Shown: one piece after another, positions 41,167 through 59,433 of the stretch
How the letters are laid out: every line of letters begins with the position of its first letter
How positions within the stretch are numbered: position 1 is the stretch's first letter
Source of the DNA: Bacteroidota bacterium
Lineage (GTDB): Bacteria; Bacteroidota; Ignavibacteria; Kapaibacteriales; UBA961
Assembly: GCA_049317525.1 (NCBI GenBank)
Contig: JBMOIC010000010.1
Location: 125 to 64,124, forward strand
Length of the DNA: 64,000 nt
Reading direction: 5' to 3'
Notes under the pieces: generated by a model
Told to the model about the DNA's origin: nothing
Databases searched by the model: none
Seen by the model: only the letters and a program-made list of their open reading frames with translations
Made by a program: the position numbers and the translations under genes

Positions 41167-41364
41167 TTATTGATTATTCACTAGTTTTAAGATAACAAGT
41201 ATTAGAATTATGAGTGCACAAATGGTGAATGCAAATTTAATGAATGTGCGCGCTAACTTGAAGAGTAAGGCGATAATAATAATCGCTATGATAAGTAAAG
41301 GTAAAGCTCCTAAAGTTAATAACCAATGATAAATACTTGATATCTGATCCATTTTTACATTCAA
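41167..41364 (-). CDS. hypothetical small two-TM membrane protein
   Basis: 65 aa with two hydrophobic helices. The start overlaps the upstream TonB-like gene stop by 4 nt. Confidence 0.3.
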   Translation of the reverse strand: MNVKMDQISSIYHWLLTLGALPLLIIAIIIIALLFKLARTFIKFAFTICALIILILVILKLVNNQ

Positions 41365-42119
41365 TCCATTTTAAAACTAAATGTTATTATTCCAGACATT
41401 TCAACACCATCTGCTATCTTATTAAATCGCCAACGCTTTAATGCACTTAATGACTGTTGTTCAAGTAATGGATCACCTTTTTGCATTGGCTTCATATTTG
41501 CAACAGTTCCATCGGCTAATACAGTAAACTTTACTTTTAATTGGACATTTCTATCAAGCTTATTAGGACTTTTAGGTAATACTTTGCTTAATACAGTTCG
41601 ATTGCCTCCACCGCCCCATTCGATGTCTCCTAATCCTAAGCCTAAACCAGTCCCTATTCCCTTATCACCAAGGCCAGTACCAGAACCAGCTCCATTTCCT
41701 ATAGTTTTTCCACCACCAGATACACTATCCTTATCAGTTTTATTACTCTCAGACACTTTATCTTTTGCAATCAAGCTATTACTTTTTGTTGGGTCATTTG
41801 CAGAAGATGCTGATTTATCTTTACTAGCATCTTCTAGAGGATTAGATGGTTTTTTACCTGATGAAGAAATACCCTCAGCTGTTAAATTACCTTTTCTTTT
41901 ACCAGTTCCATCCCCTTCACCAAAATTGAGAAGAATTATTGGATGCGAAATATGTTCAATCTTGATTGGATCAATTACTACTTTGGTATATGTAAAAAAT
42001 ATCAATAATAAAACCATACAAATAAATGCATATACAAAGCCCTTTACTGTAAATTTGTCCCAAATAAAAACAAAATTTACACGTGCATTATTTTCAGTAT
42101 TTCTTGCATGATAACTCAT
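41361..42119 (-). CDS. TonB-family protein (N-terminal TM anchor, Gly-rich linker, TonB C-terminal domain)
   Basis: The C-terminus LKVKFTVLADGTVANMKPMQKG...ALKRWRF is TonB_C-like. The Gly-rich linker is GSGTGLGDKGIGTGLGLGLG. Confidence 0.6.
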   Translation of the reverse strand: MSYHARNTENNARVNFVFIWDKFTVKGFVYAFICMVLLLIFFTYTKVVIDPIKIEHISHPIILLNFGEGDGTGKRKGNLTAEGISSSGKKPSNPLEDASKDKSASSANDPTKSNSLIAKDKVSESNKTDKDSVSGGGKTIGNGAGSGTGLGDKGIGTGLGLGLGDIEWGGGGNRTVLSKVLPKSPNKLDRNVQLKVKFTVLADGTVANMKPMQKGDPLLEQQSLSALKRWRFNKIADGVEMSGIITFSFKMD

Positions 42120-42128
42120 AGGATATTT

Positions 42129-43214
42129 TTATTCGATTTTATCTATCCATGCTTGATTATAACCTGCTTTTTTTGCAGCAGATTGTGCAGATTCTCTGCT
42201 TTCAAAACCACCAAAACGGACTCTATACCAATTTGCACCTCTATTTTTATACATACTGATATAGGCACTTGATTGACCTCTAGATTTTAATTTCTTCAAT
42301 GCTTCATTTGCATCATCTTTACTTGGAGTAGCATACACTTGTACCGAGTAAATACCTTTAACTGATGACTTTTTTGTCTCTTTATTGACTATTAAATCTT
42401 TATTTAATTTATTGATATCCTTCGATTTAGGACTTAATTTTTCTTCAGTCTTAGGATTGATCTTAGATGTAATTTTCTCTTTTAATGGTGTTGCTGGGTC
42501 TAAAAAGGTTTGTTTGATAATATCTGCTTTGCTATCATTTTTAACTTTATCTTCCTTTTTAGCAACAACTTTCACATCTTTCTGTACTATTTTATTCCTT
42601 TTACTCTTATCAGATTTACCCTTAGGAGATTGAGGTTTTTCTTGAATTTTTTCTTCAATCACAGGTTTATTATCAGATATTGATTCGGAAGAATTATTAT
42701 CTAAAGGTTTGCCTTGTGCTAATTCTGCTCTTGTGATAGAATCTTGAACTCTTGCTATAGAATCCTGAATAATTGTATTTCTTAGAATAACAACTTGAGA
42801 ATCAATCTCTATGAGATCGGGATTTGAGACTTCATTATTTTCAGTTTGTTCTGTAGTATCTATTACAATTTCAGGCTGACTTTTAGGTGAATCAGGAATC
42901 AAAAAGTAAATGAGTCCAGAAATCAATAAAATTGCTGCTATTACTTTGATCCAATTATTTCCAGAATTTTTTGGTGCTGGATTATCTGCAGACATCGTAC
43001 TTGATTCTGGATTTATATATGATATAAAGCCACCTTTTTTTTCAGAATTGATTGTACCTGAAAATGGCTTATCTTGATTTTGTTCAGAATTCATAGAACT
43101 TTTTCCTTTTGATGAATTTTTAGACGAACCAGAACCGGAAAATGTTTGTCCATCCGAATCATCAAATCCTCCGAAATTATTGGGATTTGTATTTGGGTTT
43201 ATATCATCATTCAT
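42129..43214 (-). CDS. SPOR domain-containing membrane protein
   Basis: It has a single TM helix and a long disordered K/E/P-rich linker. The C-terminal SPOR-like domain is YSVQVYATPSKDDANEALKKLKSRG...NWYRVRFGGFESRESAQSA. Confidence 0.6.
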   Translation of the reverse strand: MNDDINPNTNPNNFGGFDDSDGQTFSGSGSSKNSSKGKSSMNSEQNQDKPFSGTINSEKKGGFISYINPESSTMSADNPAPKNSGNNWIKVIAAILLISGLIYFLIPDSPKSQPEIVIDTTEQTENNEVSNPDLIEIDSQVVILRNTIIQDSIARVQDSITRAELAQGKPLDNNSSESISDNKPVIEEKIQEKPQSPKGKSDKSKRNKIVQKDVKVVAKKEDKVKNDSKADIIKQTFLDPATPLKEKITSKINPKTEEKLSPKSKDINKLNKDLIVNKETKKSSVKGIYSVQVYATPSKDDANEALKKLKSRGQSSAYISMYKNRGANWYRVRFGGFESRESAQSAAKKAGYNQAWIDKIE

Positions 43215-43233
43215 ATGCAGCCATTCAGTTTAA

Positions 43234-44835
43234 TTAAAGGGAATATTTTAGGCCTAATGCTATAAAAATGCCACGTTCCTGAAAACCATTCCACAAATAT
43301 ACTTTTGAATTTAATATATTATCTAATCGAATATATCCTTTCATATTATATGGCAAAGCATAATTGCATTGCAGATTTACCATGAAATATGCTGGTAGAG
43401 AAATTGTAGACTGTTTATCAATTGATCTTTCGCCAATATACTCTGCAGAAAATACACTTTGTATATCATTATTCCACTTCATATCCCATGTAATTCCAGC
43501 TTTTATTGTCGGTAATAATGGAACTGAACCCTCAAAATCAGATAATTGACTATTAGTAAAAGCACATAATCCACTAAATGACATAGCATCATTGGGTTTC
43601 CATAATAACTCAGAGGAAAGTGTTAATATTCGAGCACCTACATATTCTATTGCATATCCAGAGTATGTATTTCTTTCTAATGAATTTGGGATATAAATAG
43701 GCATATCTGAACTGAGCCTATAATCAATTGATGTATGTATGCTTGTTTTGGCTGTTGGTTGATACATGAATGATGGTTTTATATGTATGATATCTCTTCT
43801 AAATGAAATTACTGAAGAATCGATGATATATGGATTATTCTGGACTATGTCTTGAAATGAATTTGCACTTAATCCGCTTTGTAAAAAGCCAAAAAGGGTT
43901 ATATCTTCAGACATTTGATAATGCGCATTATACGTAATAAGTACTCCACCTAATGTAATATCTAGAGAATTTGTAGCTGATTGAAGATCTACGGATATAT
44001 CTGATTGAATGTCATTGTATGTAAACTTAGTATATCCACCTAATTGTATCATATTATATGATGAGTTTTCTCGGAATGAATGTAAATCAACAGAAGCTTT
44101 AGCCCCATAATTCATTGTTCCAAATGGTCTTGAAATATCTAAAAATCCCATAATTCTTGCATCATTGGTTTGCTTCATATTTGTTTCGCATTGAAGCATA
44201 TTCCACTCAGCGCCTGTGCTGTAGGTATATTCCTGATAATTTCCTTTAGTATGTGCATGTGCTTTTACGCCTAGAATCGATCGATCTACAGAAGAATCCA
44301 TTCCAAAAAAGGAATAACCATTTCTGAATACCGATAAAGAAGATTCAGTTCTGCTGCCTCCAAAGAAAATGAACTTTTTAGGAGCATCATAACTTGCATT
44401 GATTGCTAGCTTTACTTTGCTATAATCAGCATTTTGAATATGCCCTTTACTTCCTTCATAATATCCTAATGCATCAACCGAATATCCTAATTCTTCAAAT
44501 GTATATAATCCAATTAATTTTGGAGTATAAAATTGGCCAAGTTCAGCTTGAACAGAGGTTGATGATATATTTTTTTTGAATGTACTTTTTGGTAATGTTA
44601 ACGCTGACAATAAAGGTGCTGGTATTTTTTCATTCGTATTTATTGAATCTAATTCTGTTTGTTTAAGTGATTGTGGTTTTAAAGGCTTTTGTTTAATTCC
44701 ACCTTTTATCTCTGCACTCGCTTTGCCAGTGATAACAAATTCTTGTAAATCAATAGGTTGAACAGCATTATTTTGACCTTGTTGTTGAGCACAAAGAACT
44801 ATAGGAAATACCATACATATTATGAATAGTTTCAT
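43234..44835 (-). CDS. hypothetical outer-membrane beta-barrel protein
   Basis: It has a signal peptide (MKLFIICMVFPIVLCAQQ) and an alternating amphipathic beta-strand pattern. No catalytic motifs were seen. Confidence 0.4.
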   Translation of the reverse strand: MKLFIICMVFPIVLCAQQQGQNNAVQPIDLQEFVITGKASAEIKGGIKQKPLKPQSLKQTELDSINTNEKIPAPLLSALTLPKSTFKKNISSTSVQAELGQFYTPKLIGLYTFEELGYSVDALGYYEGSKGHIQNADYSKVKLAINASYDAPKKFIFFGGSRTESSLSVFRNGYSFFGMDSSVDRSILGVKAHAHTKGNYQEYTYSTGAEWNMLQCETNMKQTNDARIMGFLDISRPFGTMNYGAKASVDLHSFRENSSYNMIQLGGYTKFTYNDIQSDISVDLQSATNSLDITLGGVLITYNAHYQMSEDITLFGFLQSGLSANSFQDIVQNNPYIIDSSVISFRRDIIHIKPSFMYQPTAKTSIHTSIDYRLSSDMPIYIPNSLERNTYSGYAIEYVGARILTLSSELLWKPNDAMSFSGLCAFTNSQLSDFEGSVPLLPTIKAGITWDMKWNNDIQSVFSAEYIGERSIDKQSTISLPAYFMVNLQCNYALPYNMKGYIRLDNILNSKVYLWNGFQERGIFIALGLKYSL

Positions 44836-47800
44836 TATCGGACCCTCCCATATTTCTTAAGTTTTGCTTGCGCTGCTTTTCCAAAATCATCATCTGCCCT
44901 AAGTGTTGATAGTGTTTGATAGACTTCAATTGCTGCTTCAATATTTTTTACTTGTTCATAGCTTTCGCCTAATCCAAGTAAAGACAATGTAAACCAATCT
45001 TCAATATTGCTAAACTTTTGTCTTACTTGATTAAATGCTTCTATTGCATTTCCTATTTCTTTTTGTTTCAGCCATGATTCACCTATTCTATATTGGGCTT
45101 CGGCTGCAATTGAAATATTTTCGAGTCTATCAATAAGCTTTCCAAAATGTACTCTTGCACTATCTAACATTCCTTTTGATCTATAGTACATAGCTATCTT
45201 ATATCTTGACTGATCACCATATTCAGAGCTAATAAACTTGTCAGCAATTTCTGTAAATAAACGTAAGGACTTAAGTGTATCTGTTAGTGACACAGCAATT
45301 TGGGCTCTTTCATATCCAGCTTGAGCTGCTGAATTGCTATTCGGGAATTCATCCATTAACTTGATAAATGCTGTGTCGGCATCCCTCAGTAATTGAGATT
45401 TTTGCTTGAGCAATCCTATTTCAAGTAATGCCAAAGGTGCAAATTCACTTTTTGAATATGATGCATACACATCTTTATAAGAAGATTCTGCTTTGGAAGA
45501 TTCACCCAAACTAGCATAACTTTTTCCTAAATAGAACAAAGCTTCGGCATTTCTTTCTTTATCATTATTCGATTTCAAAAACGATTCATATTCACTAATT
45601 GCGCTTTGAAAATTTTGTCTATTAAAAAAGCTCAATCCTTTATTCATCAGTAAATCTTTAGCTGCATCGGACTCAGGATGTGCTTTTACAAATTCATCTA
45701 CTATCTGGTCTGCTTCTTGATTTCTTCCCAAAAATTCCAAACAATACTGAATACTTTTAACTGATTCGCCCGCTAATGGTGATTGAGCATATGAGTTTTT
45801 AACAATTGAATATTCTGTGATTGCTTTTTCATATTGCTCCATATTATAATAAGCATCCCCAATAGTATAATGGGCTCTTGCACATAATGGACTAGATGGA
45901 TAAGAGCTAATCAAATCTTTTAAGTCTTCAATTGCTTCTGAATATTTTTTTTGCTGAAAATGCGTCCAACCTAATGAATATGATGCAGAAGGAGCCAAAG
46001 ATGACTTTGAATGAGATCGTATAAATGTCCTAAATGCTTGCAATGCCCCATCAAAATCATTTAATCTATATAAAGCTTGTCCATATTGATATGCAGAATA
46101 CTGCCCTTCTTCGGAATTTGGTAAGGCCTTATATGAGGCTTTATATGCAATAGAAGATTCTTTAAATTGTTTTTGGATATAAAATCCATCAGCCTTTCTT
46201 GCCCAACTTTCTGCTGCAAACCGTGAATCTGGATATTTCTTTAATAATGAAGAAAATGCCGTATTGCTTTTATTGAAATCTCTTGTCCTAAAATATGTCC
46301 AAGCTAATGCATACATACTTTCTTCAACTCTTTTGCTCTTTGGAAAATCTGAAATCAATTGATTGTAAAATTCTTCGGCATTTTTCAATAAATCTAATCT
46401 GAAATATGACTCAGCCAACCAAAACAATGCTTCATCTTTGCGTATATCACTTTTATGTTCACCTAAAAATGTAGAAAGTTCAATTGCAGCATCTTGATAT
46501 TGTTCATTTTGATGTAGTGATACTCCATTTTTCAATCTAATTTCTGCTAATATATTTTCTTTATTGGGTAATGAAATATCAGAAAGTATTATTGCATTTC
46601 TTTCAGCTGATGCATATTCTCTGGCTGCCTTACCATACATTTCTAAATCTAAAAATATACTTCCAAGTAATAGATTAATCTTAACAAGTACTGTTTTGTC
46701 GGTGGTTTCTCTTTCTGCTTTCTGCAAAGCTTTTTTTGCTATTTCTAAATCTTTATCTTCATAGGCAATTTGCCCATATTCTAATAAAGATTGAGATATA
46801 TATGGATATCCAATTTGTGCATTTAATAATGACAATTCTTTTTTTGCTTCTTCCCTTTTTTGTAATGCCTTGAGTACTATTGCATGATATAACTTTGCAC
46901 CTTGCTTAATCAAGGATTGATCATCTTGAACCGAATCAATTACTGTTTGATAATATTGTTCTGCTAATTGATACTCTTTTAAGTGTAGTGTATTATAGCC
47001 AGCAGCCAGCCATACTTGGGGTTTCAAAGAAGAGGAAGGAAATATTCGTATAAATTCTTTAGCCATACTATGGCTACTTTGGTATTGCCCCGATAATGTA
47101 AGTGCTTCTATACGCAAAAATTGTATTTCTTGATCAGATGCTTCAGAATGCACTTGTTTTTCATACATCAATCCAATTGAATCTTTTTGTGATATTCGAC
47201 GTACAATATTATGAGCTTGATCTAAGAATACAATTGCTGCATTAGGTTCTTTTAATGCTACTTTTACATTTGCTGCACGAATCGCAGAACTTAAAACTGT
47301 ATTACTATATTGATATCTACTTAATAGCTCAGCATATAAAACACCTGCTTGCTGAGATTTTAGCTCTCTTTCGGCTAATTGAGCCCTAAAATATAATGCA
47401 TCATCAGCTAATGAATGATCAGGAAATAGTTTTTGACACTCTGTAAGAAAAACTACCGACTGTTCTATATTCCCTAATTTCGCATGAGCTATACCTTTCC
47501 AATAAATTGCAGACCCACTTATATTTTTATAATAATTTTTATCAGTTTCTAATAGTTTATTAGCATTCATTGAAGCTTGATGAAAGTAATCTATAGAAAT
47601 TACTAAATCTCCTTTATGAAATGCTATTGCTGCACGCTCGAACCATGCAATGGGTATAAACTTAGAATTGTTTCTTTGTTGTATAAAATCAGCTAAAGAC
47701 TTATCTGCATAAGAATAATCAGCTTGCTCCCTCAAAATGATGGCTTGTAATATCCTAGCTTCGTCTGAGTATATCCCATCACTAAAATCTTTTAGGTATG

Positions 47801-47960
47801 TTCTTATATGTTCCCTTGATTCAATAAGATTTCCTTCTTGAAGCAAAGCATCAGTTTGCAATAGACTCTTAGGCCCATAAGAAATTTGTGGGTCTGCAAT
47901 TTGACTGTTTGCAATAACATGCACTAATGCAAACATTGCCGAAAAAAGCAATCGTTTCAT
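44835..47960 (-). CDS. large tetratricopeptide-repeat (TPR) protein, secreted
   Basis: About 1040 aa from the probable start MKRLLFSAMFALV. There are dozens of 34-aa TPR-like repeats with the W/L-G-Y-A-F-P pattern. The signal peptide lacks a lipobox Cys. Confidence 0.7.
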   Translation of the reverse strand: MKRLLFSAMFALVHVIANSQIADPQISYGPKSLLQTDALLQEGNLIESREHIRTYLKDFSDGIYSDEARILQAIILREQADYSYADKSLADFIQQRNNSKFIPIAWFERAAIAFHKGDLVISIDYFHQASMNANKLLETDKNYYKNISGSAIYWKGIAHAKLGNIEQSVVFLTECQKLFPDHSLADDALYFRAQLAERELKSQQAGVLYAELLSRYQYSNTVLSSAIRAANVKVALKEPNAAIVFLDQAHNIVRRISQKDSIGLMYEKQVHSEASDQEIQFLRIEALTLSGQYQSSHSMAKEFIRIFPSSSLKPQVWLAAGYNTLHLKEYQLAEQYYQTVIDSVQDDQSLIKQGAKLYHAIVLKALQKREEAKKELSLLNAQIGYPYISQSLLEYGQIAYEDKDLEIAKKALQKAERETTDKTVLVKINLLLGSIFLDLEMYGKAAREYASAERNAIILSDISLPNKENILAEIRLKNGVSLHQNEQYQDAAIELSTFLGEHKSDIRKDEALFWLAESYFRLDLLKNAEEFYNQLISDFPKSKRVEESMYALAWTYFRTRDFNKSNTAFSSLLKKYPDSRFAAESWARKADGFYIQKQFKESSIAYKASYKALPNSEEGQYSAYQYGQALYRLNDFDGALQAFRTFIRSHSKSSLAPSASYSLGWTHFQQKKYSEAIEDLKDLISSYPSSPLCARAHYTIGDAYYNMEQYEKAITEYSIVKNSYAQSPLAGESVKSIQYCLEFLGRNQEADQIVDEFVKAHPESDAAKDLLMNKGLSFFNRQNFQSAISEYESFLKSNNDKERNAEALFYLGKSYASLGESSKAESSYKDVYASYSKSEFAPLALLEIGLLKQKSQLLRDADTAFIKLMDEFPNSNSAAQAGYERAQIAVSLTDTLKSLRLFTEIADKFISSEYGDQSRYKIAMYYRSKGMLDSARVHFGKLIDRLENISIAAEAQYRIGESWLKQKEIGNAIEAFNQVRQKFSNIEDWFTLSLLGLGESYEQVKNIEAAIEVYQTLSTLRADDDFGKAAQAKLKKYGRVR

Positions 47961-48082
47961 AGATGTTTCGTGGGGATGGATATATGCTGCATTCCAAAAA
48001 TACAAATATCTTTAGTATTAAAAACACTGTTTTTTTAAGATACTAAGCAAATAATTTTTTTCTATGTAAAAATGTACAATAG

Positions 48083-50338: not shown

Positions 50339-51199
50339 TTATAACTCCACTTTTTCTGCTAATGCAAAACCTTTATCAGTATGCTTTATGTTACCTGCCG
50401 GAACAAATGCATCGTGCTCAAAGCATATTATCCATTTTTCTTCTACTGCTTTAGTTAAAATCTTATGTTTTTCTTCCATAGATGTTAAAGGGAAATTATC
50501 ATAACCCATAACATATGGCACTGGAATATGTGCTGCTGTAGGCAATAAATCTGCAGGAAATATTAAGGTTTGAATATCATCGGTAACTGTAATCATTTGT
50601 AAAGCTTGCGTATGGCCATGCAATGTTTGCACAGATAAACCTGGAAATAATTCGCCAGGACCATCTAATATCTCCATCATTCCATTGTGTATAATAGGCT
50701 CCCAGTTTTCTGGCATAAAAGAAGCTTTATCTTTATCTGTGGGATTTCTTGCCCATAACAGATGATCTTTTTGTACATAATGTTTTGCATTCGGAAACAT
50801 CGGCACAATTTCTCCCGTTTCTGTTCGATAGGTAGAACCACCCGAATGATCAAAATGTAAATGAGTAAATATTACATCAGTAATATCCTGTGCTTTTAAA
50901 TTATGAATTTCTAAAGATGCCTGAATGGAAGCTCTTGTATAATCAACATTATAAATATTTTGTAGTTTTAATGGCATTTTACTACCACATCCAGTATCTA
51001 CAATAATTCTTCTATCTTCATATTGAATAAGCAAACCCCTTGCTGTCATCGGAATGCGATTTAATTCATCACCAGAATTATATGCCTTAGACCACAAAGG
51101 TTTTGGAACAACTCCAAACATTGCACCACCATCTAATGCAAAATCACCTGTTTCAAAATGCTGTATAGTAAACTTTCCTATCTTCATATTAATCAACAA
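50339..51199 (-). CDS. MBL-fold metallo-hydrolase
   Basis: The beta-lactamase-fold zinc motif is THLHFDHSGG. Confidence 0.7.
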   Translation of the reverse strand: MLINMKIGKFTIQHFETGDFALDGGAMFGVVPKPLWSKAYNSGDELNRIPMTARGLLIQYEDRRIIVDTGCGSKMPLKLQNIYNVDYTRASIQASLEIHNLKAQDITDVIFTHLHFDHSGGSTYRTETGEIVPMFPNAKHYVQKDHLLWARNPTDKDKASFMPENWEPIIHNGMMEILDGPGELFPGLSVQTLHGHTQALQMITVTDDIQTLIFPADLLPTAAHIPVPYVMGYDNFPLTSMEEKHKILTKAVEEKWIICFEHDAFVPAGNIKHTDKGFALAEKVEL

Positions 51200-52595
51200 G
51201 ATACTGTGTTTGTATAAATCTTTTATCTAATAATTGTTTTTCTGCTGATTCTGCTTTTTCAAAATTAAACTTGTTGTATTCTGCTATACAATACGATTGA
51301 ATTTCTTGCAATCCAGGATTATTGATACTGCCAATATGAGTAGTATTCATATGCTTTGGCTTCTGATACTCTCCTTGTTGAACTTTTTGTCCAATCTGCA
51401 TATAAGCTTCTCTAAAAGAAATCCCTTGTTGAACTAATTCATTTACTGAATCAACTGTATACATCAGTTCATATTTTTTATCTTGAGTAATACCTTGATG
51501 ATAAGAACTATTCTGTAATGCTATTGTTAATAAAGACATACATGTTGATAATTCTGTAAAAGCAGGAAAAAGTATTTCTTTTGTTATTTGATAATCTCTG
51601 TGATATCCCGAGGGTAAATTTGTAGTAATTCCACTAATTTCTACATGAATAGCACTAATTCGATTACATTTAGCTCTGATTAACTCGAAAACATCTGGAT
51701 TTTTTTTATGAGGCATGATACTAGAGCCTGTTGTAAACTCTTGCGGTAATGACATAAATCCGAAGTTTTGACTAGTATATAAAGTTATATCCATTGCCAT
51801 TTTACTAATACTTTGGGCAATTCCCGAGAGTGCTCTAGAAACAATTAATTCACTTTTGCCTCTTGTCATTTGAGCATAAACAGAACTTATATTAAGTCCT
51901 TCAAAACCAAGTAAATCTGTTGTTAATGTTCTATCTAAGGGGAATGATGAACCATATCCTGCAGCACTTCCTAATGGATTTCTATTCACAAATCTATATG
52001 CTGATTGAACAGTAAGTAAATCATCGGTTAGTGATTCAGCATAAGCTCCAAACCATAAACCAAATGAAGATGGCATCGCAATTTGCAGATGTGTATATCC
52101 CGGAATAATGATATCCTTGTATTGATCTCCAAGTTGTAATAAAGACATAACAGCATCTTTAACATTACTTGCAAGATGAAAAAGTTGATGTCTTAGGAAC
52201 AGTTTTATATCCAATAAAGATTGATCATTTCTAGATCTTCCTGTATGAATTCTTTTACCTGCTTCACCAATTTTCTTTGTAAGAACTAATTCTACCCAAG
52301 AATGAATATCTTCACATGATTGGTCAATTGTAAATTCTTCTTGTACTACAATATGATATAATTCATGTAAAACAGACACAATAGATGAGAGCTCAGATCC
52401 GCTAATTAGTCCTGTTTTTTTCAACATTATTGCATGAGCAATTGAACCAAGTATATCGTATGGTGCTAAAAATACATCGAATTCTAAGTCTTTACCAATG
52501 GTAAATGCTTCGATTTCTTTATGAACAGAATATCCTTTATCCCATAGTTTCATAGAATGATTATCAGTAAACGAAGTGATATTTACTTTTTCCAT
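51189..52595 (-). CDS. argH: argininosuccinate lyase
   Basis: The fumarase/aspartase family signature is GSSIMPHKKNPD. The N-terminus KLWDKGY...FTIG.D...D..LA.YD..GSIAHA.ML matches the ArgH pattern. Confidence 0.75.
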   Translation of the reverse strand: MEKVNITSFTDNHSMKLWDKGYSVHKEIEAFTIGKDLEFDVFLAPYDILGSIAHAIMLKKTGLISGSELSSIVSVLHELYHIVVQEEFTIDQSCEDIHSWVELVLTKKIGEAGKRIHTGRSRNDQSLLDIKLFLRHQLFHLASNVKDAVMSLLQLGDQYKDIIIPGYTHLQIAMPSSFGLWFGAYAESLTDDLLTVQSAYRFVNRNPLGSAAGYGSSFPLDRTLTTDLLGFEGLNISSVYAQMTRGKSELIVSRALSGIAQSISKMAMDITLYTSQNFGFMSLPQEFTTGSSIMPHKKNPDVFELIRAKCNRISAIHVEISGITTNLPSGYHRDYQITKEILFPAFTELSTCMSLLTIALQNSSYHQGITQDKKYELMYTVDSVNELVQQGISFREAYMQIGQKVQQGEYQKPKHMNTTHIGSINNPGLQEIQSYCIAEYNKFNFEKAESAEKQLLDKRFIQTQYLVD

Positions 52596-53191
52596 TTAAT
52601 TGAGCAACCGATTGCTTTTGTAAAATCTGGACTTGCTGGTTTATTTTGCATTAAAGATTCTATTGCATTTGCTAGGTATTTTTCTTTTACATTCTCTGCA
52701 TCACTATGATTATCATCAATAGCACCTATATAGGCAATAGAAAACACTCCAGAGTTATTCTTTAACACATACACATGTGGTGTTCTTGTTGCGCCATATG
52801 TTTTAGCAATTTGCTGGGTTGCATCTTGAATATATGGGAAAACAAAACCCTTTTCTTTTGCTCTGATTTTCATATTATCATATGAATCTTCTGGTACCGA
52901 TACTTCATCATTTGGATTAATAGCTATAACAGGAAATCCTTTTTCTGCATACATCTTATTGATTTGAATAATGCGATCTTCATATGCTTTTGAAAATGGG
53001 CAATGATTACATGTAAAAATGAGAATAATCCCTTTTGATGAGGAATAATCTTTTAGGCTAATCATCGATCCATCAACATTTCTTAGAGAAAAATCAGAAG
53101 CGATATCGCCTACTTTTAATCCATCAGCAGCAAAAATGTTCACACATGTTATGCAGGATAACAGAAGAGAAAAAAACCATAATTTTTTCAT
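52583..53191 (-). CDS. periplasmic thioredoxin-fold protein (CxxC = CNHC)
   Basis: It has a signal peptide. FTCNHCPFS is a redox-active-like dithiol in a Trx-like scaffold. Confidence 0.5.
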   Translation of the reverse strand: MKKLWFFSLLLSCITCVNIFAADGLKVGDIASDFSLRNVDGSMISLKDYSSSKGIILIFTCNHCPFSKAYEDRIIQINKMYAEKGFPVIAINPNDEVSVPEDSYDNMKIRAKEKGFVFPYIQDATQQIAKTYGATRTPHVYVLKNNSGVFSIAYIGAIDDNHSDAENVKEKYLANAIESLMQNKPASPDFTKAIGCSIKWKK

Positions 53192-53706
53192 AATTCACTC
53201 TTTAATAATTGTGTAATAATATCTTGTAATTCTTCATGTTTAAATTGTTTTTCAAAGAATTTGCGAATTTTTTTTTGATTATTAATCAGTAAAGTAGCTG
53301 GTAAAGCACCACTCCACTCACTATCAACTTTATCTATCCATTCATTTGGATTTTCAGCTTTTAATAACACTATCTCGGATTGAATATCTTTCTTTTTTAT
53401 GAAAGGAAGTAGAATTTTTTCTTTGTCTTGTATAAAATCCAAACTAATTAAAAGAACTTTTACTGATTGATTTTTATACTTCGCATTAATTTCTTCAAAT
53501 ATTGGTAATTCTTCAACGCATGGCTTACACCATGTTGCCCAAAAATTTATTATGTATAATGTATCATGAGTATTATGAAGCAAAGAATCAATTTGTGAAA
53601 AAGAGATAATTCTTCCTTGATTTTGGGCATTAATATTTGGAGTGCTATGGATAAAGACCCATGCCAATAAAGGTAGAAGCAAACTATAATGTACTTTATA
53701 TAGCAT
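53188..53706 (-). CDS. TlpA/ResA-family thiol-disulfide oxidoreductase
   Basis: It has a signal peptide. FWATWCKPC is the classic WCxxC motif. Confidence 0.75.
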   Translation of the reverse strand: MLYKVHYSLLLPLLAWVFIHSTPNINAQNQGRIISFSQIDSLLHNTHDTLYIINFWATWCKPCVEELPIFEEINAKYKNQSVKVLLISLDFIQDKEKILLPFIKKKDIQSEIVLLKAENPNEWIDKVDSEWSGALPATLLINNQKKIRKFFEKQFKHEELQDIITQLLKSEL

Positions 53707-56700
53707 TATTGTATCACAGTACGTTTAGTTTGCAAGCGGTCAAAATATTGTCTGATAAGAATTTCATAGTCTTTTGTATACCCTTTTCCTAAAGATCTAA
53801 GCACATCTTGCATCGCTTTATTTCTTCCTTCTGGAGAGTTAAGATTTAACTGTGGAGGACTTTTTACCGTGATGTCTTGTCCACTTCTGGATTCTCTGTC
53901 TTTTTCATAATCTCTTTCATTCATAGATCTAGAAGCATCCAATAACCTAGACAAAATTCTTTCTTGTCTTCTTCTAGTTTCTGGAGTGATAATTCCACTT
54001 TCCATATCAGCAACAATCTCTCGCATTTCATCTGCAATTTTCTTTAAGTCGCCTAAAGATTTTCTTTTACCAGTTGGATCAGTTTGTTGTTTGGCTAATT
54101 CTTCCATAGCTTGTTGAGCTTTACCTTGTTGTCCTGCTAATCGAGCTAATTGCTGTTGTTGTTGCGGAGACAAACTTCCATCTTGTCCAGGTTGTGGCAT
54201 TCCTGAATTAATCTGTTGTTGCATACCTGCCATTTTCTGCAATTGTTGCATCATGCCTCCACTGCCTGCTTTTGCTTGGCCCTGCCCTCCGGGATTATCA
54301 CAAGATCCATCACCTTCGCCTTTCATCTTATTTAAGGCATCTTGCATTTGGATAGATGCTTTATTTAATGAACTCATAGCAGCCATTTGAGATTGAGCAG
54401 CATTCGAAGGATTTCTTTGAGATAATTGTTCAGATGCTTTTTGCATTTCTTGCATAGCATTAGACATTTCTTTTACCATTTCAGGACTTACTTTTGTTGT
54501 CTTTTGCGCTAATTGCATCATTTGGGCAGCCATATTTGCTAATTGATCTTGCAATTGCGCTTGGTCTTGGGCTGCTTTTTGTAATTGATTAGAATTAAAA
54601 TCTAATGATTCTGTTTTCTGTTTTTGGGCTTCTTCTTGTTTAGACATACTTAAAGCATCTTGCAATGATTTTTGCATTTGCCTGATGGCTTCTTTATTCA
54701 TATTTTTTTTCATCTCTTGCTTTAGCTTTTTCATTTGCTTGGCAAAATTCTTAACATTTTGCGCAGCTTTTTTCTGCTTTTGCGCAGACTTATTCATATC
54801 CCCTTTTTGCATTTCATCAGAAGCTTCTTGCATTTCTTGAGATGTTTCTTGTTCAGCTAATTCTTCTTTTGCTTTTTCAAGCTCTTTCATGGGCATTTGT
54901 TGAGCAAGATCTTTCATTAATTGTTCAAGATCTTTAAGTTCTTTTGCCATATCTTTTAAGTCTTGCTGCAATGCTTTGTTTTCTAATTCATTAGCTTTTT
55001 TTTCTGCTTGATTAGATGGATTTGTGTTTTCCGTCTTTTTGGCCAATTGTTCTTGTTGTTCTGCTAATTTTTCAGCTCTTTTAAGCAAAGCATCTGTTTT
55101 TTGTTCTGCTTGTAAACGCTTTAAAATATTCATTGTTCTTTCAATTCCCTTCCTAAATTCTTCTTCATTGAATTTCATTTGTTTCATTGCTTGTTGAATT
55201 TGTTCAGGGCTTAATTCTTGCATGGCTTTTTGCATTTCTTCCATTGCTTTCCGCAATTCTGGAGAATTTACTTCTCGCATCAGTTTTTGAAGCTCTTTAT
55301 ATTGCTCCATTGTTTCTGGTGAAATCGCATTGTTATCCTGCAACTTTTCGGTGATATCTTGCAATTTTTTATCTATCTGATCCATCTTTTTCTGAAGATT
55401 TTCCTGCTTTTTCATCAGATTATCTACTTTTTTTGCGTCTTTCCAATCCATATTTTGTTGTTGCTTTAGCATTTCTCTTTGTAATTCATCCAATTCTTTA
55501 GAGATTTCTTTTGCTTCAGCTGCTGTTTTTTCCAGATCTTTTACTGCATTATCTTGTACTGAATCTGCATTAGACAATACTTCATCTAATGAAGGTAATC
55601 GAACACTGATAATTGATGTTCTTGAAGATTTTGGGCCGGTAATAATATCATTATCAATGATTTCACAATAGAATTCATATCGATCACTTGGGGCAATTCC
55701 AACTTTATTTATATCCCACATATATGGAATATCTGCGCTTACAGTACCACTTGGAATAGGAATACTTAGCGAGCTAAAACTTTTGGACTCTGGTGCATAT
55801 TTGGATTCAGCTAATCTATACCACAGTTTTAATGATGAAAACCCATAATCATCGGCTATTTGAAGAGAAATAGGTAATAATGCTTGTTCATTTACAGTAA
55901 TATCATGATTTGGCTCTATCAATGTAATAATGGGAGAATTGTCACGAATGGTAGTTATGGAATAATGGAGTGGCTCTTCATTTATTCTTCCATCTTTGTC
56001 TTTAATTTCGATATAATATTCACCATCTTTTTTTACTGTAAATCCTCCATTTGCAACCCTTGATTCTCCTTGTAATGCTATTCTAACAGTATCATAACTT
56101 TTGGCTTTACTGCCATTTACCGTATCTTTTTGATTATATGAAGGATACAATACAATGATTGAAGCTTTGCTTATATCTTTGCTTGAAACTACAGATAATC
56201 GAACGGTAGTACCAATAAGGCTTATGATATCTGCATTTTGTTCATTTATTGTTTTTGATGCTTGTTTACTATATGCTGGTGGTTGAACGGTTCCTGAGAT
56301 AGAACGTATCTGAGGTCTATCAATCACGGTGATTTTCCCAATGGCTGTTTGTACTGGTTCATTTAACCAGTCTGACATTCCATAAAACTCTACACTTTGT
56401 TTAAGTGATTCTATCTGATAGGTATATACATTAGTAGAATCTGCTTGCAATTGAAATTTTTCGAAGTTTTGCTGTTTACCTTGCTTTAGCATCAGAAAAA
56501 CAGAGGCAGGCATAGTTCCATGTACAGTGATAGAAATGCGTGCTTTTTCACCTCTTAATTGTTCTTTATTAAGGGGAGATATCGTTAAATAGAATGGCGC
56601 AGGTGGAACAAATGATGTATCATGATTCCAAAGCCTATACAATGAAGATTGAAGAGATTGAACGCCAACAATACTAATTGATGATATAACTATTGATAGT

Positions 56701-57197
56701 ATAAAAAAAAGAAATGCCCTTTTTTTCTTTTGATGATTAAGTATTACAGAAAAATCTTTCCCTTTTGTTAATGATGATGCATATGAAAATGCAGCATATA
56801 CAAGTTCTTTAGATGTCCCTTGCTTATTAAATTCTAATAATTGCATTGCATTTAGCAAAATATCTCTAATATCACTATAAACATCTCCAACTCTTTTAGC
56901 TAATTGATATAATGTATCTTTTTTTGACATGCCGATTAATAGCATGATAGATGGGAATACATTAGAACCAAGTGCAACAATAGACAATATTACCGATGTA
57001 TAAAATAATGTTGTTCTTGTTTGAATATTACCTTGAGCTATAGCTTCTAATGCAGAAAAAAAGAGAACAATAATAGATATATATGAAATACCAATAAGTA
57101 ATCCAGAAATAGTATTATTAATCAGCTCTGAATGTTGAACTTCTTCAAGCCTTTTAATAATATCCTCATATCCTTTTTCTATAGGATTTGTATTCAT
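53706..57197 (-). CDS. large membrane protein of unknown function: N-terminal double-TM (plus third TM), beta-rich periplasmic region, about 450-aa K/E/Q-rich coiled coil, Q/G-rich tract, conserved C-terminal tail
   Basis: 1163 aa. The TM helices lie at about aa 30-50, 62-90 and 155-178. It is collinear and nearly contiguous with the upstream DUF4159-like gene, and its stop overlaps the TlpA-like start. Confidence 0.55.
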   Translation of the reverse strand: MNTNPIEKGYEDIIKRLEEVQHSELINNTISGLLIGISYISIIVLFFSALEAIAQGNIQTRTTLFYTSVILSIVALGSNVFPSIMLLIGMSKKDTLYQLAKRVGDVYSDIRDILLNAMQLLEFNKQGTSKELVYAAFSYASSLTKGKDFSVILNHQKKKRAFLFFILSIVISSISIVGVQSLQSSLYRLWNHDTSFVPPAPFYLTISPLNKEQLRGEKARISITVHGTMPASVFLMLKQGKQQNFEKFQLQADSTNVYTYQIESLKQSVEFYGMSDWLNEPVQTAIGKITVIDRPQIRSISGTVQPPAYSKQASKTINEQNADIISLIGTTVRLSVVSSKDISKASIIVLYPSYNQKDTVNGSKAKSYDTVRIALQGESRVANGGFTVKKDGEYYIEIKDKDGRINEEPLHYSITTIRDNSPIITLIEPNHDITVNEQALLPISLQIADDYGFSSLKLWYRLAESKYAPESKSFSSLSIPIPSGTVSADIPYMWDINKVGIAPSDRYEFYCEIIDNDIITGPKSSRTSIISVRLPSLDEVLSNADSVQDNAVKDLEKTAAEAKEISKELDELQREMLKQQQNMDWKDAKKVDNLMKKQENLQKKMDQIDKKLQDITEKLQDNNAISPETMEQYKELQKLMREVNSPELRKAMEEMQKAMQELSPEQIQQAMKQMKFNEEEFRKGIERTMNILKRLQAEQKTDALLKRAEKLAEQQEQLAKKTENTNPSNQAEKKANELENKALQQDLKDMAKELKDLEQLMKDLAQQMPMKELEKAKEELAEQETSQEMQEASDEMQKGDMNKSAQKQKKAAQNVKNFAKQMKKLKQEMKKNMNKEAIRQMQKSLQDALSMSKQEEAQKQKTESLDFNSNQLQKAAQDQAQLQDQLANMAAQMMQLAQKTTKVSPEMVKEMSNAMQEMQKASEQLSQRNPSNAAQSQMAAMSSLNKASIQMQDALNKMKGEGDGSCDNPGGQGQAKAGSGGMMQQLQKMAGMQQQINSGMPQPGQDGSLSPQQQQQLARLAGQQGKAQQAMEELAKQQTDPTGKRKSLGDLKKIADEMREIVADMESGIITPETRRRQERILSRLLDASRSMNERDYEKDRESRSGQDITVKSPPQLNLNSPEGRNKAMQDVLRSLGKGYTKDYEILIRQYFDRLQTKRTVIQ

Positions 57198-57203
57198 ATA
57201 AAA

Positions 57204-57875
57204 TTATCTAGTTAAAGCGTAAACAATAATGTTTGTACCAATTTTCAAGGAAATTTCACGTTTTTCATTTGTATCATGATGAATTTCTGGATCTGCCCAA
57301 CCATCACTTGGATTGGTTTCTACTGTATAGAACACACATAGTTTGCCATTATGAAAAAGGCCTAGTCCCTGAGGCATTTTTGCATCATGTTCATGTATTT
57401 TTGGCATACCATTTGGAAAAACAAAATGTGATGAATAAAGAGGATGATTAAAGGGTAAATCGATAAAATTTTGTGATGGAAACACCTTTTTCATTTCTTT
57501 ACGAATAGAAGCGTCCATGCCATAATCATCGTCAATATAAAGGAAACCTCCATGTTCTAAATATGCTTTTAGTCTAGCTACTTCATTATCTGAAAAACTA
57601 ACAGTACCATGACCTGTCATGAAAAGTATAGGATACTGAAATATATTATCAGATGAAATATCTACATATTCATATTTAGGTTCTACTTGAATAGTAGTAT
57701 ATTTTCTAATATATGCTAAAAGATTCACTTCAGAGGATTGATCATTATACCAATCACCACCACCTGAATATTTTACTCTTCCAATTTTAAGCAAACTATT
57801 TTGTTGTTGTGCTTGAATTGGTATTAAACATATCACTAATAAAAATGCAAAAAGCATATATCTGATGAATTTCAT
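57204..57875 (-). CDS. secreted DUF4159-like protein (class I glutamine-amidotransferase-like/ThuA-like fold suspected)
   Basis: The signal peptide is MKFIRYMLFAFLLVICLIPIQA. The motif is LFMTGHG...LKAYLEHGGFLYIDDDYG. The ORF track starts 21 codons earlier. Confidence 0.45.
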   Translation of the reverse strand: MKFIRYMLFAFLLVICLIPIQAQQQNSLLKIGRVKYSGGGDWYNDQSSEVNLLAYIRKYTTIQVEPKYEYVDISSDNIFQYPILFMTGHGTVSFSDNEVARLKAYLEHGGFLYIDDDYGMDASIRKEMKKVFPSQNFIDLPFNHPLYSSHFVFPNGMPKIHEHDAKMPQGLGLFHNGKLCVFYTVETNPSDGWADPEIHHDTNEKREISLKIGTNIIVYALTR

Positions 57876-57934
57876 ATTACATTTGTGATAGGCATAGATG
57901 AACATACATTTAATATGCATAACGTTCGAATGTA

Positions 57935-59308
57935 TCAAGTATTTGAGTCCAATACAATAGATTCAATTAATGTACGATAGTCTTCTGCATTTTGTTCTGA
58001 ATCACTTTCTGCAATAAATCTGACAATGGGTTCAGTATTAGATATTCGCACATGTATCCAACTCAATCCAAAGTCCATCCATATCCCATCATCATATCTA
58101 ATCTGAAGTGCATGTTCACCCAAAGTATCAGCAATTTTTTTATACAGTACTTGCGGATCTCTATCCCAATTTGATTTACCTTTAGCTATATATCTTTTGG
58201 GCAAACTATCAGATATTTTGCTCAATGTTGAATGTTCACATCTTAGCAAAGCAATAATCAATGCAATTCCAACCAAAGAATCTCTTCCATAATGACAACT
58301 AGGCAAGATTACGCCACCACTACCTTCCCCACCTATAATTGCATTATGCTGTTTCATTGCTTTTACAACATTAATCTCCCCAACTGGACTTCTAAATGTT
58401 TTGGCTTTATATTCTTCTGAAATAATATCTGTAATTCTTGAAGTTGATAAATTAACGACAACACTTTGAACTTCATTGATATCTATCATAGATAATAAAG
58501 ACTTAACAGATAAAGCAATTGTTTTTTCTTCGCCTATGGGAATGCCATGCTCATCAATCAGAACTAATCTATCTGCATCTGGATCTATGGCTATTCCAAA
58601 GTCTGCTTTATGGTTTAGGACAGCTTGCGATAATTGATATAAATTCTGTGGAATTGGTTCGGGAATGTGTGGAAACATCCCTGAATTGTCACAAAACAAT
58701 GGAATTACTTCGCATCCTAATAATTCTAATAATCTAGGTATAAATATGCTTCCAGAAGCGTGAACGGCATCCACAACTACTGTGTATTGTTTACCCAAGA
58801 AACAAGATTGTTTTGTAATTGATTCGATGGATGAAATGACAGCATTACAATGATATTCTACCGCATTTTCTACAGTATATATCGTACCAGGAATGATATT
58901 TTCTGATGAATCATGAGGAAAATTATCTACTATGTGCCAGAATTCTCTATTCTGTTGTTCGTCTAAAAATACTCCATCAGAACCTAGAAATTTCAATCCA
59001 TTCCATTCTTGAGGATTATGTGAAGCTGTAATTGATATTCCACCTGCAGCTTCAGAATGTTCTGTTTGTAATTGAATAGTTGGTGTTGGTGCAATACCTA
59101 ATAACAATATATCTCTGCCACAAGCTTGCAAAGTTCCAATAAGAATATGTTCCATCCATAATCCAGATGGGCGGCCATCTCTTCCAATAACTATTGGTCC
59201 TTCGGGACAATATTGTGCAAAAGCAGCAGCATATCTACTAATAATTTCAGGCTGAAGCCCTGTCCCTAATGTTGCTCTTAATCCAGAAATTGATCGTATA
59301 AATGCCAT
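57935..59308 (-). CDS. phosphohexomutase (phosphoglucosamine mutase GlmM-like, Bacteroidetes type)
   Basis: The active-site Ser loop is GISITASHNPQEWNGLKF. The probable true N-terminus MAFIRSISGLRATLG resembles the Bacteroides GlmM start. Confidence 0.75.
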   Translation of the reverse strand: MAFIRSISGLRATLGTGLQPEIISRYAAAFAQYCPEGPIVIGRDGRPSGLWMEHILIGTLQACGRDILLLGIAPTPTIQLQTEHSEAAGGISITASHNPQEWNGLKFLGSDGVFLDEQQNREFWHIVDNFPHDSSENIIPGTIYTVENAVEYHCNAVISSIESITKQSCFLGKQYTVVVDAVHASGSIFIPRLLELLGCEVIPLFCDNSGMFPHIPEPIPQNLYQLSQAVLNHKADFGIAIDPDADRLVLIDEHGIPIGEEKTIALSVKSLLSMIDINEVQSVVVNLSTSRITDIISEEYKAKTFRSPVGEINVVKAMKQHNAIIGGEGSGGVILPSCHYGRDSLVGIALIIALLRCEHSTLSKISDSLPKRYIAKGKSNWDRDPQVLYKKIADTLGEHALQIRYDDGIWMDFGLSWIHVRISNTEPIVRFIAESDSEQNAEDYRTLIESIVLDSNT

Positions 59309-59375: not shown

Positions 59376-59409
59376 ATAAAAAAAGGCTGTGCATAACTTA
59401 TACACAGCC
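59376..59409 (-). terminator. intrinsic terminator downstream of the 59434..62184 gene
   Basis: On the minus strand the hairpin GGCTGTG-TATAAGTTATG-CACAGCC is followed by a T8 run. Confidence 0.55.
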
Positions 59410-59433
59410 TCTCATTATAAAGCAGAAAGTAGA

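Follow-up and report, generated by a model that had tools for sequence, protein, structure and literature searches.

The window analysed here is a 64,000-nucleotide stretch of contig JBMOIC010000010.1 (positions 125 to 64,124 of the forward strand; assembly GCA_049317525.1) from a bacterium of the class Ignavibacteria, with a G+C content of about 33%. Inside a long co-directional gene string it carries a set of four minus-strand genes (Table 1) which encode, in order of transcription, a secreted protein of the DUF4159 family, a large membrane-anchored protein of the DUF4175 family, and two exported thioredoxin-fold proteins, Trx1 and Trx2. All four open reading frames (ORFs), with their motifs and overlapping junctions, were found where a preliminary description of this DNA had placed them. 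Read directly, the DUF4175 stop and the Trx1 start have TAATG in common and the Trx1 end and the Trx2 start have ATGA in common, and the DUF4159 stop lies six nucleotides, not the 7 bp counted earlier, ahead of the DUF4175 ATG. The nearest relatives of the DUF4159 and DUF4175 proteins are encoded by metagenome-assembled genomes of Ignavibacteria and Kapaibacteria. The two genes are conserved as neighbours across these groups, and in Gemmatimonadota both families share one operon with genes for MoxR, DUF58 and BatA_N/vWA/GATase1-like proteins.

Table 1. Coordinates of the genes, the DUF4175 regions and a terminator-like hairpin in the window
Feature	Position	Strand	Remarks
DUF4159 gene	57204..57875	-	223 aa; start set by homolog length of 222-223 aa; longest ORF runs to 57938
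DUF4175 gene	53706..57197	-	1163 aa
DUF4175 residues 1-190, membrane anchor	56628..57197	-	hydropathy, charge counts, AlphaFold2 (AF2) helices, invariant columns
DUF4175 residues 191-536, tandem Ig-like beta-sandwich ectodomain	55590..56627	-	AF2, Foldseek, BLASTP
DUF4175 residues 537-1066, Q/K/E/M-rich helical region	54000..55589	-	AF2 DSSP, periodicity, composition
DUF4175 residues 1067-1163 and stop codon, conserved C-terminal module	53706..53999	-	invariant columns
Trx1, TlpA/ResA-like exported thioredoxin-fold protein	53188..53706	-	172 aa; WCKPC; Pfam and NCBIfam
Trx2, exported AhpC-TSA/Redoxin-fold protein	52583..53191	-	202 aa; CNHC; argH overlap 13 nt
Intrinsic-terminator-like hairpin	59381..59413	-	15-pair stem and T run; between PD40/OmpA and glmM-like genes

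The DUF4159 and DUF4175 proteins

The product of the first gene begins with the signal peptide MKFIRYMLFAFLLVICLIPIQA, followed beyond the cleavage point by QQQ, and matches the Pfam family PF13709 (DUF4159) at 213.3 bits against a cut-off of 25.9 (E=3e-63) over profile positions 2-202 of 202. This full-length match above the gathering threshold bears out the earlier DUF4159 assignment. The fold is the alpha/beta fold of class-I glutamine amidotransferase (GATase)-like and ThuA-like proteins, in agreement with the solved PF13709 representative, PDB 4I66 (Hoch_4089 of Haliangium ochraceum), which is likewise a DUF4159 protein and belongs to the class-I GATase-like clan. A catalytic class I glutamine amidotransferase was considered and rejected, the nucleophile elbow reading G88-H89-G90 with no cysteine nucleophile; the same position reads G-D-R in 4I66 and E-G-G in the DUF4159 protein of Gemmatirosa.

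The window protein belongs to a subfamily marked by the motifs MTGHG, GGFLYIDDDYGMD, PKIHEHD and DGWAD. The family search returned 6077 matches, the best 120 of which share 62-98% identity with it, and the His/Asp motifs (MTGHG, DDDYG, PKIHEHD, DGWAD and H199) persist down to 44% identity. Written as invariant patterns, MTGHG, DDDYGMD, PKxHEH[DN] and DGWxD distinguish this Bacteroidota type from 4I66 and from the MoxR-linked DUF4159 proteins of Gemmatimonadota, both of which lack them. The invariant positions of this His/Asp set are H89, D115-117, H144, H150, H161, E162, H163, D191, D195 and H199. A copy of the Bacteroidota type with every subfamily motif (45% identity) also occurs on plasmid pCRULAC1 of Corynebacterium crudilactis (NZ_CP015623.1; L089, 11953-12570), where it is solitary, is not accompanied by DUF4175, and lies beside a dihydrofolate reductase gene within a multi-resistance region rich in IS26 and Tn3. 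We know of no member of the DUF4159 family to which a function has been assigned.

The second protein matches PF13779 (DUF4175), a family that the preliminary description had proposed as a check, above the gathering threshold (47.4 bits against 27.3, E=1e-12), with residues 298-1099 aligned to profile positions 184-819, and many of its homologs carry precomputed PF13779 matches. No NCBIfam model was matched at E<=0.01, including TIGR02302, which we take to be the alpha-proteobacterial counterpart of DUF4175, and an exact-sequence look-up of the window protein returned no record. Copies 95% identical to it are present in metagenomes, full-length homologs extend to about 20% identity, and a scan of species-representative genomes confirmed at least 587 relatives. 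When the Ig-like ectodomain alone was searched with phmmer against 1.84 billion cluster representatives, 3680 matches reached E<=1e-3, of which 1000 reached E<=1e-10 and 159 reached E<=1e-30; among the matches listed most are 1100-1200 aa long with the domain at the same position, and the shorter ones are mostly partial. With hundreds to thousands of homologs to their credit, both genes are real.

Hydropathy places three transmembrane segments (TM) near the N-terminus of the DUF4175 protein, at about residues 32-50, 70-88 and 161-179, and an AF2 model built from a 40-homolog alignment (pLDDT 76.9, pTM 0.46) has N-terminal helices at 5-54, 58-87, 96-152 and 156-178. Because the segment between TM2 and TM3 (residues 88-160) is rich in lysine and arginine (13 K/R) and ends in KKKR directly ahead of TM3, the positive-inside rule predicts an N-in topology in which residues 185-1163 would be periplasmic. 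The three hydrophobic segments and the charge pattern thus fit the large, mostly periplasmic, membrane-anchored protein described earlier. The likeness then drawn to the 'two_anch' N-terminus of TIGR02226 was not borne out: residues 1-189 give no match to either anchor model in Pfam or NCBIfam even at E<=10, and three TMs with an N-in charge pattern differ from the N-out arrangement of BatA_N (PF07584)/TIGR02226 anchors. Within the predicted cytoplasmic insert, which AF2 models as helical at 96-152, D112, L114 and N116 are invariant columns.

After the third TM, the beta-rich region of the preliminary description is modelled by AF2 as beta-sandwich domains spanning residues 202-533 (pLDDT about 90). 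No other part of the family is as diagnostic as this Ig-like ectodomain, whose invariant residues include P307 and Y309 (PPAY), D419 and P422, D449-D450-x-G452 (DDYG), and E512, D515-N516-D517 and G521 (DNDxxxGP). We looked for a specific structural homolog of the protein and found none: Foldseek against the PDB returned only generic tandem Ig, FN3 and MG (macroglobulin) domains, and a profile search of PDB sequences returned nothing but designed helical bundles and one weak Ig match.

From residue 537 to about 1100 follow some 560 residues that AF2 models at pLDDT 65-80 as at least 15 helices, with breaks at S-P-E/N-P-S caps and proline-containing starts such as ISPET, NSPEL, LSPEQ, VSPEM and ITPET. 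Disorder is predicted for Q/G-rich tracts at 962-980, 1003-1007 and 1039-1048, and also for 1095-1117; the Q/G-rich tract noted earlier is accordingly present, at about 962-1010. By Fourier analysis, a hydrophobic periodicity of 3.5 residues is clearly significant in two stretches only: 587-642, where z is about 10, and 951-1062, where it is about 4-5. Since the helices are interrupted at proline caps and the periodicity is patchy, the uninterrupted heptad coiled coil of some 450 residues that had been proposed is unsupported, and in the model this region is more likely a segmented helical array than one rod.

Methionine makes up 7.8% of residues 537-1100 (53898-55589), against a background of 2.5% in the window, and occupies many conserved columns. 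It amounts to 4-9% of the corresponding region across the Ignavibacteria and Kapaibacteria homologs whatever their K/R usage, and to only 1-3% in Gemmatirosa and in the remotest homologs. Methionine richness was therefore discarded as a trait that defines the family, being kept within the class and absent from Gemmatirosa and the remotest homologs. The helix starts of the form [LI]SPE(Q/T/L) resemble the LTXXQ motifs of Spy and CpxP; this likeness was also set aside, as the helical fragments gave no LTXXQ or Metal_resist match in Pfam at E<=10.

The protein ends in a module with the consensus QERILSRLLDAxRSxNERDxExxRES ... GYxKDYExLIRxYFxxL. Its invariant or near-invariant columns (Q1078, I1081, S1083, L1086, S1091, R1095, D1096, R1101, P1114 and Y1151) substantiate the conserved-looking tail of the first account. 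The mature protein contains a single cysteine, and the alignment has no conserved cysteine pair.

Like other members of PF13779, the window protein combines N-terminal TMs, a large extracytoplasmic Q/G-rich part and a conserved C-terminal motif. It differs from typical alpha-proteobacterial members in being about 300 aa longer, in its methionine-rich helical region and in lacking a TIGR02302 match; moreover, its gene adjoins DUF4159 and does not lie inside a MoxR operon. By analogy only, TolA-like proteins of the inner membrane also join a TM anchor, by way of long helices rich in charge, to a small conserved C-terminal module in the periplasm. DUF4175 has no sequence or profile similarity to them, and differs in its three TMs, its Ig-like domains and its roughly 560 segmented helical residues; no link between DUF4175 and TolQR/ExbBD-like genes was found.

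Conservation of the gene pair and its Gemmatimonadota context

ORFs were called in 87 related loci and searched with the window proteins; 74 of these loci, having at least 1.5 kb of upstream DNA, are informative for the pairing. In 60 of the 74 the gene next upstream of DUF4175 is DUF4159, and in two more DUF4159 lies within 6 kb. The usual order is rsmG–DUF4159–DUF4175 (45 loci), and the pair outlasts a change of flanks, standing behind a glmM-like gene in the window and behind rsmG elsewhere. In the 67 loci with both genes, the identities of the two products to the window proteins correlate (r=0.67), and DUF4159 is always the better conserved, with a mean of 64% against 43% for DUF4175.

Two observations concern the immediate surroundings of the pair. 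In one Ignavibacteria locus (L004, 8122-9576) a Fic-domain gene stands between DUF4159 and DUF4175. In 18 loci (L020, L021, L023, L027, L033, L034, L037, L039, L040, L043, L050, L052, L059, L063, L066, L073, L075 and L078) a small membrane protein of 117-122 aa is encoded directly downstream of DUF4175, often with a 4-nt (ATGA) overlap with its stop; it gives weak EamA/TMEM234 matches in Pfam, is also seen at L088 (14186-14554), and does not occur in the window. It could be a third partner in certain lineages, or no more than one further tight junction.

A tblastn search against plasmids located a further DUF4159 copy in Gemmatirosa kalamazoonensis, on a replicon of 1.1 Mb. There, Pfam matches give the order TPR/Peptidase_MA_2, secreted DUF4159, MoxR (AAA_3, E=1e-59), DUF58, a protein combining BatA_N, VWA_2 and GATase1_like domains, and a DUF4175-like protein of 1268 aa; the order DUF4159–MoxR–DUF58–BatA/VWA–DUF4175 recurs on two further Gemmatimonadota contigs, which makes three loci in all (L090, L091 and L092). 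The window DUF4175 protein aligns with that of Gemmatirosa by BLASTP (E=1e-29) over residues 151-683, across TM3 and the Ig-like region and thus with homology outside the low-complexity helical region, with the PPAY, DDxG and DND motifs kept in the alignment, and the terminal GY..L...YF..L motif is common to both. The preliminary description had held the pair to be without a known function or context. Both families are indeed uncharacterised; a context exists all the same, in the MoxR–DUF58–BatA operons that hold the Gemmatimonadota copies. The adjacency in 60 of 74 loci, together with the shared operon in Gemmatimonadota, supports a functional pairing of DUF4159 and DUF4175.

TPR proteins, several of them with Peptidase_MA_2, are encoded beside members of either family in Gemmatimonadota and at some of the distant loci (L090 8198-11698, L091 1181-3835, L006 13379-15292 and L030 8119-9990), and may be a further component of a wider system.

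Possible roles of the pair

Because the Gemmatimonadota operons join both families to MoxR–DUF58–BatA, we lean, if only slightly, towards reading the two-gene envelope module as belonging to a MoxR/Bat-type envelope-maintenance system, of which it would supply the periplasmic part, its genes in this lineage lying away from those for the ATPase. The likeness to Bat/MoxR–DUF58–BatA(vWA) operons extends beyond shared operons to the proteins: a GATase1-like fold is found at the C-terminus of BatA-type proteins as it is in DUF4159, and BatA-type proteins place their large domain in the periplasm, the inner-membrane protein BB0173 having a periplasmic vWA domain (PMC5700661). In such a system, DUF4175, a protein of about 1160 aa in the inner membrane, would serve as an anchored platform or scaffold projecting its Ig-like domains, a segmented low-complexity helical spacer and the C-terminal module into the periplasm. 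DUF4159, with its non-amidotransferase GATase1-like fold, would be the soluble periplasmic partner, which the Ig-like domains or the C-terminal tail of DUF4175 may dock, possibly along with vWA partners. The conserved cytoplasmic insert might make contact with a cytoplasmic partner, and the Ig-like domains might bind Ca2+ or a partner through their invariant acidic loops.

Several observations weigh against a detached MoxR/Bat part. The absence of MoxR and vWA partners remarked on earlier holds over the whole 64 kb of the window, in which no homolog of MoxR, DUF58, BatA or rsmG was found, and the pair differs from a MoxR/Bat-type operon in that MoxR, DUF58, vWA and BatA_N are missing beside it here and in most relatives. 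Among the related loci, 84 of 87 have no MoxR, DUF58 or BatA within 10 kb; MoxR occurs within that distance in one (L046) and BatA-vWA in two (L007 and L079). In 12 of the 74 informative loci DUF4175 has no DUF4159 within 10 kb, and the N-terminal anchor of DUF4175, as seen above, is not a BatA_N domain. In the lineage of the window the pair need not depend on MoxR and could act autonomously. With no NCBIfam match for the window DUF4175, alpha-proteobacterial phenotypes may not transfer to it. Finally, since a complete bat deletion in Leptospira biflexa is without an oxidative-stress phenotype (PMC3557215), the wider Bat/MoxR-vWA system is itself of unresolved function. In the locus with MoxR (L046, 6850-13531; Ignavibacteria), MoxR is followed by a predicted lipoprotein of 703 aa and then by DUF4175, with DUF4159 not in its place; for the lipoprotein, neither a Pfam match nor a homolog among the other 86 loci was found.

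The published record bears on these families only at a distance, and a search for functional studies of Bacteroidota-type DUF4159 or DUF4175 proteins found none. In Rhodobacter sphaeroides, the TIGR02302 protein RSP_0730 is dispensable and belongs to the direct targets of the CenR envelope regulon (PMC9275681). Deletion of a TIGR02302 gene in Azorhizobium caulinodans led to exopolysaccharide (EPS) overproduction and an infection defect, to go by how Sato et al. 2016 titled their study, which PMC6842974 lists among its references and cites in its text only on the need of adequate EPS for nodule development. In AdvA, a division protein of Acinetobacter, the DUF4175 match is confined to the N-terminus (PMC7481262), and we did not treat AdvA as an ortholog.

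It is unlikely, if far from negligible, that the pair is instead an autonomous module independent of MoxR, in which DUF4159 would be a metal-dependent enzyme or metal-binding protein acting through its His/Asp cluster and DUF4175 would tether or present it; the methionine-rich helical region might in addition bind Cu(I) or hydrophobic clients. Such a module would account for the near-universal lack of MoxR genes around the pair, and for the stronger conservation of DUF4159, which keeps 54-73% identity where its DUF4175 partner keeps 33-60%. The retention of the His/Asp motifs down to 44% identity, when the MoxR-linked Gemmatimonadota type lacks them, points the same way, as does the methionine enrichment across the class. 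Yet no DUF4159 protein is known to have a metal site or a catalytic activity, the uncharacterised 4I66 included; the methionines may only serve helix cores, their enrichment is lost in distant homologs, and no Pfam metal-resistance or Spy/CpxP LTXXQ match appears at E<=10. A fuller version for the Kapaibacteria and Ignavibacteria, an autonomous machine in which a metal-dependent DUF4159 enzyme or metallochaperone is held by a methionine-rich DUF4175 that binds Cu(I), oxidants or unfolded clients, we consider improbable.

We give similarly little credence to the proposal that the adjacency is conserved synteny and nothing else, the pair hitch-hiking on rsmG with no functional coupling. The dominant order does include this unrelated housekeeping gene, the 12 loci with an unaccompanied DUF4175 are as such a view would have it, and the distant DUF4175 homologs P0061 and P0070 have no DUF4159 neighbour. 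However, the pair persists under changed surroundings, with glmM-like in place of rsmG and even with the Fic insertion, and both families recur in one operon of another phylum in a different order.

Thioredoxin neighbours and the wider significance of the pair

Trx1 and Trx2 both have AhpC-TSA/Redoxin/Thioredoxin matches in Pfam, CxxC motifs and N-terminal signal-like segments. They score 57.6 and 50 bits with the ResA subfamily model, against a cut-off of 170, and are thus members at the superfamily level only. Homologs stand behind DUF4175 in six loci only (L001, L002, L008, L009, L010 and L016), in which DUF4175 is 58-60% identical to that of the window and the syntenic block PD40/OmpA–glmM-like–DUF4159–DUF4175–Trx–Trx–MBL–Rieske–QueG is kept. 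Where DUF4175 is at most 52% identical, the gene that follows it varies among the loci (EamA/TMEM234-like, P-type ATPase, cation-efflux, TruB-like and others). Beyond this six-locus clade, a search of the 87 loci found a Trx homolog within 10 kb in a single locus, 9 kb upstream, and loosening the threshold to E<=0.01 made no difference. Comparing neighbourhoods, as the preliminary description had advised, therefore upholds the pair and not its association with TlpA-like genes, an outcome that it had itself named as refuting: the Trx genes, which it had counted as part of the envelope module, keep to the six syntenic loci of the clade with about 59% identity.

The overlaps between DUF4175 and Trx1 and between Trx1 and Trx2 are present as described, and lose their distinctiveness as signs of translational coupling when set against the rest of the window, in which 23 of 38 same-strand junctions (61%) overlap or are no more than 15 bp apart. 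The argH gene (51189-52595, minus strand), which meets the TIGR00838 cut-off, overlaps Trx2 by 13 nt and an MBL-fold gene by 11 nt. Because argH is missing at that position in the clade with about 59% identity (L001, L008 and others), where the MBL gene directly follows Trx2, it looks like a recent insertion into the gene string that is already tightly joined. Upstream, the strong hairpin between the PD40/OmpA and glmM-like genes probably marks the start of a long mixed transcription unit that holds the pair, and no comparable terminator was found over the next 11 kb or so of co-directional, functionally mixed genes. Since the Trx genes follow DUF4175 only where the whole block is syntenic, their adjacency is best read as inherited synteny and not as a functional link; what DUF4159 and DUF4175 have in common with the Trx, argH, MBL and other genes is no more than a long, compact housekeeping transcription unit, and these genes are bystanders and not functional partners.

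Further downstream in the same string (41361-48005, minus strand) lies an envelope-looking set, syntenic in L001, whose products are a 1056-aa TPR protein with a YfiO/BamD-like match, a 533-aa protein, and two proteins with a SPOR and a TonB_C domain, respectively. The 533-aa protein has no Pfam match in the window, and its L001 ortholog has a weak match to a TonB-dependent-receptor barrel.

It is very improbable, then, that the four genes encode a periplasm-spanning coiled-coil ruler or sensor whose state or partner is serviced by two coupled thiol-disulfide oxidoreductases: all four products have export signals or a periplasmic topology, their start and stop codons overlap, their order is kept in six related species-level genomes, and Bat loci have historically been tied to periplasmic redox and aerotolerance (PMC3557215 and PMC5700661), but the Trx genes are not beside DUF4175 in any locus at or below 52% identity, inheritance of a whole 10-gene block explains the order in the six positive loci, tight junctions are generic in the window with argH equally 'coupled', DUF4175 offers a single cysteine, and segmented helices weaken the idea of a ruler.

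The pair formed by DUF4159 and DUF4175 is real and conserved, and both families are already named and widespread, carrying the NCBI labels 'DUF4159 domain-containing protein' and 'DUF4175 family protein'. These results do not overturn current understanding, and a redox-coupled periplasmic ruler is unsupported by them. What they add concerns two large, widespread and uncharacterised envelope families, the ectodomain of DUF4175 alone accounting for about 3700 clusters at 50% identity. The two families form a conserved pair, their membership in a MoxR–DUF58–BatA operon of another phylum ties both to 'Bat aerotolerance' systems, and the Bacteroidota-type DUF4159 proteins possess a distinct set of invariant His/Asp motifs. 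If the pair were to prove an autonomous metal-dependent machine, it would give biochemistry its first point of entry to what the wider MoxR/Bat envelope systems do.

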